DNA of 25,105 nt from a virus (lineage: Duplodnaviria; Heunggongvirae; Uroviricota; Caudoviricetes): the IMG/VR virus record IMGVR_UViG_2703718818_000017; one strand, written 5' to 3'. Made by a program: the position numbers. The stretch's first letter is position 1. The number at the start of each line of letters is the position of its first letter. Shown one piece after another: positions 15,201-18,200 of this stretch.

Positions 15201-18200
15201 TGCGTTTTTTAGCTCGGTTGGCAAGATTCATGTTGACTCCTTTTCTGTCATTGATGATTACAGATACTTCTGTATTTGACAAACAAGGTTGCCTGTGAGG
15301 TAATTACAAGTAAACCTGTAATAATGAGGGCTTACTCAATGACCAGTTCTACCCTTGCTTCACGTATAAAGGAGCGCCGCAAAGCTTTAGGTATAACCCA
15401 AACTTCATTGGCTGAAAGTGTTGGCATGCGCCAGCAGTCTGTTCAATACCTTGAGTCCGGACGCGCCACACGTACCGGTTTCATCCTTGAATTGGCAAAA
15501 GTTCTGAAATGCGATCCTGACTGGCTATTAAACGGCGAAAATTCAGAGCAGCAAAAGGTGTAACCCATGCCTGATAACAAACCCTGGGGAGCTACGCCCG
15601 ATGAGTGGTTCCACTTCGATCTGGTGTTGGGGATGACAGACAGGCTTTTACCTGTGGTGTCCAATCCCTGTGCAGAACTGTCGCCTAATAGCAAGCTGTC
15701 TCATAATTTCGGCAAAACTCCCAGTCGCTACAATGGCCAACGTAAGGTTGTTGGTATCCCCGACTGGGCTAACTATGTTGTTACGGAAAACGATTTTGCC
15801 CGGTGGTCGAACGAACCCGATTACGGTATTTGCGTTCGTACTGGCGACGGGGTGGTGGCTCTGGACTGCGATATCAATGACGCCGGGATGCAGGAGATCG
15901 TACGCAATATTATCCTGTCATGCCTGGGGGAACTTCCGCCACGTCGCTGGCGGGCTGACAGTCATAAATGCCTGTACCTGATTGCTGTTGATGGCGACTA
16001 CCGTAAACGTGGTCACCGCCTGGAAGGCGAAAACAAACAAATAGAGCTGCTCGCTAAGGGCCAGCAGTTTGTGGCTTGTGGTACCCATCCGGCAGGCGAA
16101 CGTATTCAGTGGGACTGCGGTTTGCCCGGCGAACCTCTGAAAATTACATCTGAACAGCTCGAAAGCCTGTGGCAGCGTCTGGCGGATAACTTACCCGTGA
16201 AAGACAGCTATACCGCAGGTGCAGGACGTCAGCGTGACCTTTCCTGTGTTGATCCTTCCGCGACAGATGATGTCGCTGACTGGCTTGACGCGAACGGGTG
16301 GACTCTGTCAGTCAGCTCTGATGGTTCCCGCAATCTGAAACCGTTTCGGGATGAGTCAGAATACAGCAACGGTTGCAGCGAAACATCCATTAAGTATTTT
16401 CCAAAAGGGACGGGGGGATTTGAACTGGGACATTTTAAAAGCATGCACAACACCGATGCGGGGCTTACTGATGCCGACTGGCTGGATGCATACGGCTACC
16501 GCGTGGCGGACTTCGAAGATTTGACAGTGGCTGAAGATGGCGATAAGCCTGAGTATCTTCCCTGGCCTAAGTTCAGTCGTGATAAGAATGACCGGATAGA
16601 AGGTACCGTTACCAATGTGCTGCTGGCGCTGCGGCGACCGGATCTCTGCGGTGTACAAATCCGCCTTGATGAGTTCCGGGACGAGATAATACTGATCACT
16701 CCACGGGGGAAAAACCTGCGGTTGCGTGATGAGTTTTATACCATGCTGCACTCTAGGCTCGAATGTCTGGGATTCAAGAAATTTGAAGAGGCAGCGATCA
16801 GGCGTGCGGTGCGCCTGGTCGCGTACGAAAACCGTTTTGATTCGCTTAAAGACTGGATTGCCAATCTTCCTGCATGGGATGGTGTTCCCCGTATAGATAC
16901 TTTCTTCTGTCGGCACTGGGGTATCGAGGCCAACGCCTACACCCACGCAGTCGGGCGCTACTGGTGGACTTTGCTCGCGGGTCGAGCTCTGGTTCCTGGC
17001 ATTAAAGGGGACATGGCTGTGATCCTTGTCAGCCAACAGGGTAAGAACAAGTCCGAAGGTATCCGTGCAATGGCTCCAACCCCTGAGCATTACATGGAAC
17101 TGGACTTCGGTAAGAAGGGAGAGGAGCGCATTCGTGAGATGCGAGGGCATAACGTTATTGAGCTTGGTGAGATGCGCGGTATGGATAAACGGGGTATTGG
17201 TGATGTTCGTGTCACCATATCCACCCGTGCAGACCGCAACCGCGGGGTGTTTCGGGAGCACTATGTCACTTTACCGAGGCGTTGCGGTTTTATTGGTACT
17301 TCTAACTCCGATACGCCATTGACAGATACCGAAGGTAACCGCCGTTGGTTGCCGATGACGATACCGGATGAGACTGACGGCAAGTTTATCGCTCAGGGTA
17401 TCGCTGACGAAAAAATACAGCTTTGGGCTGAAGCAGTCGCCGTTTTTAAACGTGATGGCATCGCATGGGAGAAGGCTGAAACACTGGCTAAGTCTATTCT
17501 TGGGGATTATGAGGTCAAAGATGAGGTCTGGATGTCATGCGTCGCTGAGTGGTTAGAGTTGCCACAGGATCTGTACGATATGGCTGCCGACGGCACGAAA
17601 AAGAACTGCGAACGCGTCCCCCTTACGTCAAAAGACGTATTGGTCGAGGCGATTGGCTTCAAAGCCCCCCAGGTAAAACGCAGTGACGAAATGAAAATTG
17701 CAGCAATCATGAAGAAGCTTGGTTACAAAAATAAACAGTTGCAAAGTTTACCGGGTAAGCCTCGCAGCTGGGAAAAATGCAAATAACTACAAGTTTGTAG
17801 ATTTTTGCAGGTTGTTACTCAACCTACTCAACCTCACAAGGGTAGGTTGAGTAAGAAAAATGGTATTAAAATCATGATATTACTCAACCACTCAACCTAC
17901 TCAACTATTTTATATAAATATACGCGTGCGCGCGCACGCATGTATGTAAGAATTTTATTTTTCCAAAAGGTTGAGTAGGTTGAGTAAGAGTATGATTTTT
18001 ATGTTTTTTAGGTTACTCAACCTTTTGCCCGTAAAAAAGGTTGAGTAAAGAAAACTTGCAGAAAATCACAAATAACCAAACGGAGTAAAAACATGAATAC
18101 AACCTGTGCAAGATTACCAAGTGCGGATACGTTAGCGGAACAGGCAGCAAAAACGGCAAGTGGGTGGATGTCAGACGCCGTAATAGCGATAGATGAGCTT

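Follow-up and report, generated by a model that had tools for sequence, protein, structure and literature searches.

A 232-bp array of short repeats at positions 17816-18047, directly downstream of a gene for a 739-amino-acid (aa) primase-helicase (15567..17786, + strand), is the probable lytic replication origin of a Shiga toxin 2 (Stx2) prophage of Escherichia coli, with the upstream protein as its putative initiator. Judged from sequence comparisons, we put the probability of this reading at roughly 80%. The prophage is contained in IMG/VR record IMGVR_UViG_2703718818_000017, a stretch of 25,105 bp that is referred to throughout as the window. When Stx prophages replicate upon induction, the copy number of the stx genes rises, which helps to drive toxin output, and we know of no origin described for the non-lambdoid 'Eru' types. 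The Eru10 type, represented here by an Stx2b phage, gains an explicit candidate origin with base-pair coordinates and a candidate initiator domain. On the available tests, this candidate belongs to the Rep/ori family of Staphylococcus aureus pathogenicity islands (SaPIs), and P4 alpha and ORF904 of pRN1 are analogous. The principle is already known; what is new is that such an origin was previously undescribed for Eru10 Stx phages.

The iteron array and the upstream primase-helicase

The repeat word TACTCAACC occurs in eight exact copies in this region, on the plus strand at 17816, 17825, 17881 and 18014 and on the minus strand at 17845, 17969, 17978 and 18039. Two one-mismatch versions, CACTCAACC at 17889 and TACTCAACT at 17898 (both +), bring the total to ten copies in both orientations. 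The first iteron begins 30 bp past the stop codon of the 739-aa gene, and GC content in the intergenic region (17787-18092) is 30-36%, against ~50% in the flanks. Exact copies are absent from the rest of the 25,105-bp window. With up to one mismatch allowed, the window contains 15 matches compared with 4.3 ± 2.1 expected from dinucleotide-preserving shuffles (n = 100), none of which reached 15. The densest 300-bp segment holds nine copies of one 8-mer, compared with at most three in the rest of the window and at most four in block shuffles (n = 50). No second TACTCAACC cluster was found in 42 kb of prophage, from attL to the tail genes. A sequence-only reading of this DNA had described ten copies of a 9-10-mer in both orientations within about 235 bp after the primase gene, several of them in inverted pairs, around a perfect 16-bp alternating-GC palindrome in AT-rich DNA, and each of these features is borne out by the counts above and the layout below.

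The array is quasi-dyad-symmetric. Its left outer group (17816..17853) consists of two tandem direct copies (17816-17824 and 17825-17833, both +) and one inverted copy (17845-17853, −), and is followed by a 27-bp AT-rich spacer (17854..17880) with 20-mers of about -21 kcal/mol. The left inner triplet (17881..17906, +) faces the centre and comprises TACTCAACC, CACTCAACC and TACTCAACT at an 8-9-bp period. A 62-bp core (17907..17968), with AT-rich flanks at 17907-17917 and 17949-17968, separates this triplet from the convergent right inner pair (17969..17986, −; copies at 17969-17977 and 17978-17986), which also faces the centre. A second 27-bp AT-rich spacer (17987..18013) mirrors the left one, and the array ends in a right outer pair (18014..18047) of inverted copies at 18014-18022 (+) and 18039-18047 (−), with a 16-nt gap. 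The symmetry is carried by inverted repeats I1 (17844-17889 versus 17978-18023; 46 nt, 76% complementary) and I2 (17815-17834 versus 17968-17987; 20 nt, 100% complementary), and the right outer pair forms a further inverted repeat, I5, with 14-nt arms that are 100% complementary. The centre of the inner arrays (17933.5) lies close to that of the palindrome (17931.5). A local GC-skew flip across the array was dropped as evidence, as it merely follows the orientation of the C-rich/G-rich iterons.

The palindrome, GCGTGCGCGCGCACGC (16 bp, 17924-17939), is the middle of a perfect 31-nt alternating purine-pyrimidine tract, ATATACGCGTGCGCGCGCACGCATGTATGTA (17918..17948), which is the only alternating run of at least 14 nt in the window. 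By nearest-neighbour stability, this GC tract holds the most stable 20-mer of the region (-36.6 kcal/mol), and the least stable 20-mers flank it on either side (17901-17920, -18.8 kcal/mol; 17941-17960, -20.7 kcal/mol), so the AT-rich flanks rather than the palindrome are the candidate unwinding DNA. The sequence-only proposal of an iteron plus unwinding-element architecture needs one correction here, in that the GC tract is itself not easily unwound.

The upstream gene was characterized with Pfam, phmmer and PHROGs. Its product carries a Prim-Pol domain (PF09250, 2.7e-07) at residues 75-185 and a VapE-like domain (PF05272, 2e-44) at residues 436-639, with a VapE-type superfamily 3 (SF3) helicase region at ~395-639. 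PHROGs labels the protein DNA helicase/primase, and NCBIfam holds no model for it. The sole relative found by phmmer in the PDB is 7pds_A (E 3.9e-26, residues 395-627), which is, according to its source paper, the Rep1-DNA complex of SaPI1. A winged-helix domain is predicted at the C terminus (residues ~679-739; coding region 17601..17783, +), with helices H2 at 688-696 and H3 at 705-717 and a beta-hairpin wing at 720-737 (nt 17724-17777). This predicted domain has no detectable sequence similarity to SaPI1 Rep, and the phmmer match ends at residue 627.

Conservation in relatives and covariation with the predicted wing

About 85 homologous loci (36-100% protein identity) were gathered from a viral-contig scan, protein-guided contig look-ups and a phage collection. 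Array-bearing phages infect gamma-, alpha- and beta-proteobacteria and include Yersinia phage YeP4, Caulobacter phage Jess A, APSE-1 and Acidovorax phage ACF1. Nearly all loci have the same layout within 250-300 bp after the stop codon, starting a few tens of bp past it: an inverted pair, three tandem copies with a 9-bp period, an AT-rich centre and inverted tandem copies. In L006, L007 and L085-L090, the left outer group is spaced from the stop codon as in the window and has the same make-up, with a pair of direct copies plus an inverted one. The repeat word itself, an 8-9-mer, is lineage-specific, and at least 14 different words were found, typed by the consensus of the inner triple repeat because typing by the commonest 8-mer was noisy. 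The word of the window is shared with L090; the others are TACTTAACC (L084, L087 and L089), TACCTAACC (L086 and L005), TAGCTAACC (L088 and L009), TATCCAACC (L007 and L008), TAGACAACC (L018 and YeP4), TAGACCACC (L035), TGTAACCAC (L013 and Jess A), TGTTACCAC (L048), TGTATCCAC (L047), TGGAACCAC (L012), TGTACCAAC (L016), TGTCCCAAC (L045), GTAACAACC (APSE-1) and CTGTTCCTA (ACF1). A switch of all copies to one new word, with positions and orientations unchanged, is what marks sites that a co-evolving protein reads. In APSE-1, an annotated ORF named 'P4' (L093 2864-3085) overlaps the array, with its GTAACAACC copies and (AT)n centre, and is probably not a gene.

These comparisons bear directly on whether the repeats have a function at all. 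Debris of slippage or duplication, or a locus for a structured RNA or small open reading frame (ORF), could be read from a 57-aa ORF (17805-17978) that overlaps the array and from weak hairpin-type Rfam matches. The ORF is spurious, however, all Rfam matches fall far below gathering scores, and the copy number is far above chance. Moreover, only selection on a shared binding specificity explains an architecture that is conserved across gamma-, alpha- and beta-proteobacterial phages while the word changes in concert. The comparative data therefore effectively refute the non-functional explanation already, and we give it almost no weight.

The word covaries with a short segment at the C terminus of the primase-helicase. 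Aligned over 71 homologues, residues 715-739 share 1.06 bits of mutual information with iteron type, compared with 0.2-0.5 bits per column elsewhere. For protein pairs with at least 95% identity across residues 1-700, identity in the segment 712-736 is 98% if the iterons are the same (n = 165) and 69% if they differ (n = 499). A motif G-K-x-x-[RK]-x after the conserved wing glycine corresponds one-to-one to the iteron word across the 71 loci, so that some six wing residues track the repeat: GKVQRV is paired with TGTAACCAC, GKVLKV with TGTATCCAC, GKLMKV with TGTTACCAC, GKMTRI with TGTACCAAC, GKKMRI with TGTCCCAAC, GKQQR[VI] with TAGACAACC, GKQIRV with TAGACCACC and, in the window, GKPRSW with TACTCAACC. 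Within the window clade, PR[SH]W occurs with xxxxCAACC and PYHW with xxxxTAACC, and loss of an arginine alongside loss of a G:C pair would be chemically sensible. From these alignments, a few residues of the predicted wing appear to read the repeat word. At least 14 natural wing/iteron pairs are thereby available, some of them only one base and one or two residues apart, from which the specificity of winged helices and the incompatibility of replicons could be studied.

The neighbouring genes do not follow the word: one cluster of the Cro-like gene occurs with eight iteron types and one cluster of the downstream ORF with six. L090 has another immunity region, another N-terminal region and no 93-aa ORF downstream, yet carries the wing of the window and TACTCAACC. 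These observations weigh against the idea that Cro, CI, Q or the 93-aa product uses the repeats as operators to control read-through from the early operon into Q and stx. In favour of this idea, the array belongs to the early transcription unit that runs rightward, where the next ORF is the one ahead of Q, and its inverted pairs resemble operators. However, it is kept where Q (L083, L086 and L087) or the 93-aa ORF is absent, TACTCAACC is missing from the cI-cro intergenic region, and ten sites spread over 232 bp around a 62-bp AT-rich centre are unlike an operator. A promoter and terminator scan of the array detected no sigma-70-like site and no plus-strand terminator, and the only terminator-like match, which corresponds to the palindrome, is on the minus strand, which appears not to be transcribed there. 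An operator function is thus very unlikely, and the persistence of the array without Q and in L090 contradicts the alternative named in the sequence-only reading, that the repeats bind Q or another regulator.

Relation to known replicons and proposed initiation

SaPI Rep is a self-loading SF3 helicase and initiator whose C-terminal winged helix recognises short iterons; the experimentally defined SaPI origin has 6-12 iterons directly downstream of rep, an AT-rich centre and at least two opposed iterons per side; and in SaPI5 primase and Rep are fused (PriRep5) (PMC9371898). The locus in the window resembles this system in several respects. Its helicase core is homologous to SaPI1 Rep (PDB 7PDS), a primase is fused to it as in PriRep5 with no separate loader, and a winged-helix domain is predicted at its C terminus. 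The iterons lie directly 3' of the gene, and three plus-strand and two minus-strand copies flank the AT-rich 62-bp core. It differs in residing in a Gram-negative host and belonging to a complete temperate Stx phage, whereas SaPIs are satellites; in that the iterons are 9-mers instead of penta- or hexanucleotides; and in its extra outer inverted pairs, quasi-perfect dyad and long alternating GC/AC tract at the centre. Gene content, homology to SaPI1 Rep, the conserved layout and the wing covariation together lend computational support to the sequence-only proposal of a primase-linked, iteron-type origin in place of a lambda O/P-type one. A SaPI-type design, with a self-loading primase-helicase and an iteron origin directly 3' of its gene, would occur widely among proteobacterial phages, such as APSE from aphid symbionts and the Yersinia and Caulobacter phages.

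Other replicons share parts of this arrangement. P4 has octamer iterons (TGTTCACC) in both orientations with a 9-bp tandem spacing, a crr cluster directly downstream of the alpha gene, and one polypeptide that joins primase and SF3 helicase. P4 alpha reportedly binds its origin through a C-terminal winged helix, and its primase is DnaG/Toprim-like, not Prim-Pol. Homology of the 739-aa protein to P4 alpha was considered and rejected (best BLASTP E 0.35). P4 also needs two separated clusters (ori and crr) in cis, whereas only one cluster is present here, across both the 25-kb window and 42 kb of the identical prophage. According to the abstracts of the reports on pRN1, ORF904 combines Prim-Pol, SF3 helicase and winged helix, and 166 bp downstream of its gene are essential in cis (PMC4234260, PMC2777425). 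As far as the abstract and the Pfam Prim-Pol domain allow the comparison, the locus in the window is like pRN1 in its domain set and in having the essential cis region directly downstream, and unlike it in that pRN1 is an archaeal plasmid. Lambda's O gene contains its iterons, and the O protein serves only to bring in host DnaB by way of P; the phage encodes neither a primase nor a helicase. Lambda shares the combination of iterons and an adjacent AT-rich region, an initiator specificity encoded beside its sites and the same slot between cro and Q; the window differs in having no O/P genes, and its arrangement is filed as non-lambdoid 'Eru10'.

Several observations count against 17816-18047 as the point where replication starts. 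In P4, the cluster directly downstream of alpha is crr, and ori is 4.5 kb away. Covariation speaks to putative binding and not to initiation. Because the wing codons and the array are separated by only ~40-90 bp, part of the covariation may stem from physical linkage when cassettes are exchanged, although linkage alone is weakened as an explanation because the equally close downstream ORF does not co-vary. The arrays of L083, L085 and L086 mix two related words, so the 'code' is not perfectly clean. Finally, a very stable GC tract at the centre is atypical for an unwinding element. The main rival explanation is that the primase-helicase binds the array as an auxiliary cis element of the crr kind, or as a copy-control or autoregulatory (handcuffing or titration) site, and that initiation takes place elsewhere, beyond the DNA examined. 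Yet the 42 kb of prophage contain no second TACTCAACC cluster, the protein is homologous to SaPI1 Rep and not to P4 alpha, and SaPIs have their origin in just this place, at the cluster that directly follows rep. The dyad layout with its AT-rich centre suits loading and melting, and a titration site would not require it. An auxiliary or autoregulatory role is thus unlikely, more plausible than operators but well behind an origin.

If the array is the origin, initiation could proceed as follows. The 739-aa protein would act as a self-loading primase-helicase whose C-terminal winged helix reads TACTCAACC, mainly via the beta-hairpin wing (residues ~720-737, ..GKPRSW..). Protomers on the convergent inner arrays (three on the left and two on the right, 8-9-bp period) would build two opposed helicase rings that bracket the 62-bp core, and its AT-rich flanks would melt, so that the core would be the site of both melting and helicase loading. 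The SF3 rings would then close around single strands and travel away from each other, with the first primers made by the N-terminal Prim-Pol domain and extended by the phage family-A DNA polymerase (6051-8114, −). The outer inverted pairs would probably serve cooperative binding. Neither a DnaA box (at most one mismatch) nor GATC is present between 17572 and 18380, which fits an origin that is independent of the host initiator. Here we infer the binding, the double-hexamer loading, the melting site, the priming and the independence of host DnaA and DnaB.

The central tract and the prophage context

The central tract is the one feature that departs from the descriptions of SaPI, P4 and lambda origins. 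Palindromy is not kept among relatives, whereas an alternating CG/CA/TG/TA run is kept in every window-clade locus examined. In each, this run (25-42 nt) is the longest alternating run of the locus and lies ~125-140 nt past the stop codon (210 nt in L084, which has a longer intergenic region). In most of the clade at 49% protein identity, (AT)n of 12-19 nt occupies this position. No run of at least 10 nt was detected there in L077, L079 and L080 of that clade, YeP4 or the Caulobacter phage, leaving these five distant loci without a long central tract. The palindrome itself is therefore incidental, and what is conserved in the window clade is the alternating tract. The tract is length-polymorphic among near-identical E. 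coli prophages, with 29 nt in L003 (an IMG/VR contig) and 31 nt in the window, that is, one GC unit fewer, which suggests slippage. In the 49%-identity clade (L018, L035, L045, L076, L080 and L081), a second alternating tract, CTCGCGCGTGCGCGCGTTT and variants, occurs ~265-290 nt past the primase stop codon, ~100 bp to the right of the array and just before the ribosome-binding site (RBS) of the next gene, and resembles the central GC tract of the window.

Alternating purine-pyrimidine DNA is prone to form Z-DNA, and cruciforms when palindromic. A tentative extension of the origin reading, which we consider possible but would not expect to hold, is that the tract is a functional element of a kind undescribed for SaPI-, P4- and lambda-type origins, and that the wing/iteron map is a readable recognition code of winged helices. 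Under this extension, the tract might be a supercoil-driven switch (B-to-Z or cruciform) that sets or gates melting of the AT-rich flanks between the two helicase rings; alternatively, it might be a fixed Prim-Pol start site on both strands. If the extension is true, the wing/iteron code would be usable for building orthogonal replicons. A GTG primase recognition motif of the pRN1 type was considered in the tract and dropped, as it is present in the window and, by eye, absent from L007 and L008.

The window represents an E. coli Stx2 prophage next to yfhL, and its closest match is the prophage of strain JNEC-KY176, in which the toxin is annotated as Stx2b. It encodes an integrase (470-1873), cI (14602-15282, −), the Q antiterminator (18443-18904), stx2A (19133-20161, RIP domain) and stx2B (20174-20437). 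The rightward early operon runs from a helix-turn-helix (HTH; Cro-like) gene through the 739-aa gene, the array, the 93-aa ORF, Q and tRNA-Arg to stx2AB. The 93-aa ORF (18093-18374, phrog_1231) is kept in part of the window clade, and unrelated genes take its place elsewhere. The 739-aa gene and the 93-aa ORF are the only genes between the Cro-like gene and Q; no lambda O/P genes were found there, nor in the RefSeq annotation of the same prophage. Eru10 is a non-lambdoid Stx phage replication region in which only a Prim-Pol (PF09250) protein and Q lie between cI and stx (Fagerlund et al. 2022). The order cI-HTH-Prim-Pol/VapE-93-aa ORF-Q-tRNA-stx2AB in the window agrees with this description, and the assignment to Eru10 is by gene order. 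A term search of the two Eru papers returned no occurrence of 'iteron' or 'origin of replication', and an exact string search of a paper library for the 9-mer returned only unrelated primer sequences. The module is rare, being present in 2 of 5,426 complete E. coli genomes, and the origin region had no blastn match among 50,697 phage records.

The leftward early operon encodes the family-A DNA polymerase, DUF2815 and DUF2800 proteins, an SNF2-related protein and a PDDEXK nuclease. An HNH/NUMOD4 endonuclease ORF (11859-12377, −) sits between the DUF2800 gene and a 300-aa ORF in the window. JNEC-KY176 has it too, but the prophage of strain 89-3156, collinear in other respects, does not. A second ORF with an HNH signature (~13530-13823, −) has the same pattern of presence and absence, which looks like homing-endonuclease polymorphism inside the replication operon.

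Two further observations concern the boundaries of the module. A 16-nt direct repeat brackets the origin region, as GAAAAATGCAAATAAC at the end of the primase ORF (17772-17787) and as GAAAATCACAAATAAC before the RBS of the next gene (18061-18076), and may be a joint for module exchange. The motif TGCAAATAAC/G ahead of the downstream RBS also occurs in L083, L005 and L011. The Prim-Pol region of the 739-aa protein (residues 1-330, 15567-16556) shares 96-97% identity with the corresponding region of a different protein, which has a DUF5906 (PF19263) helicase as its C-terminal half (P0031 of phage vB_EcoM-606R2 and others; L011 3001-5265). Directly 3' of the DUF5906 gene is a 10-copy array of another word, CTGTTACC, with an AT-rich centre of alternating purines and pyrimidines. 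A shared Prim-Pol N terminus with a different helicase and a different array points to domain shuffling that swaps the helicase/origin unit under one primase domain.

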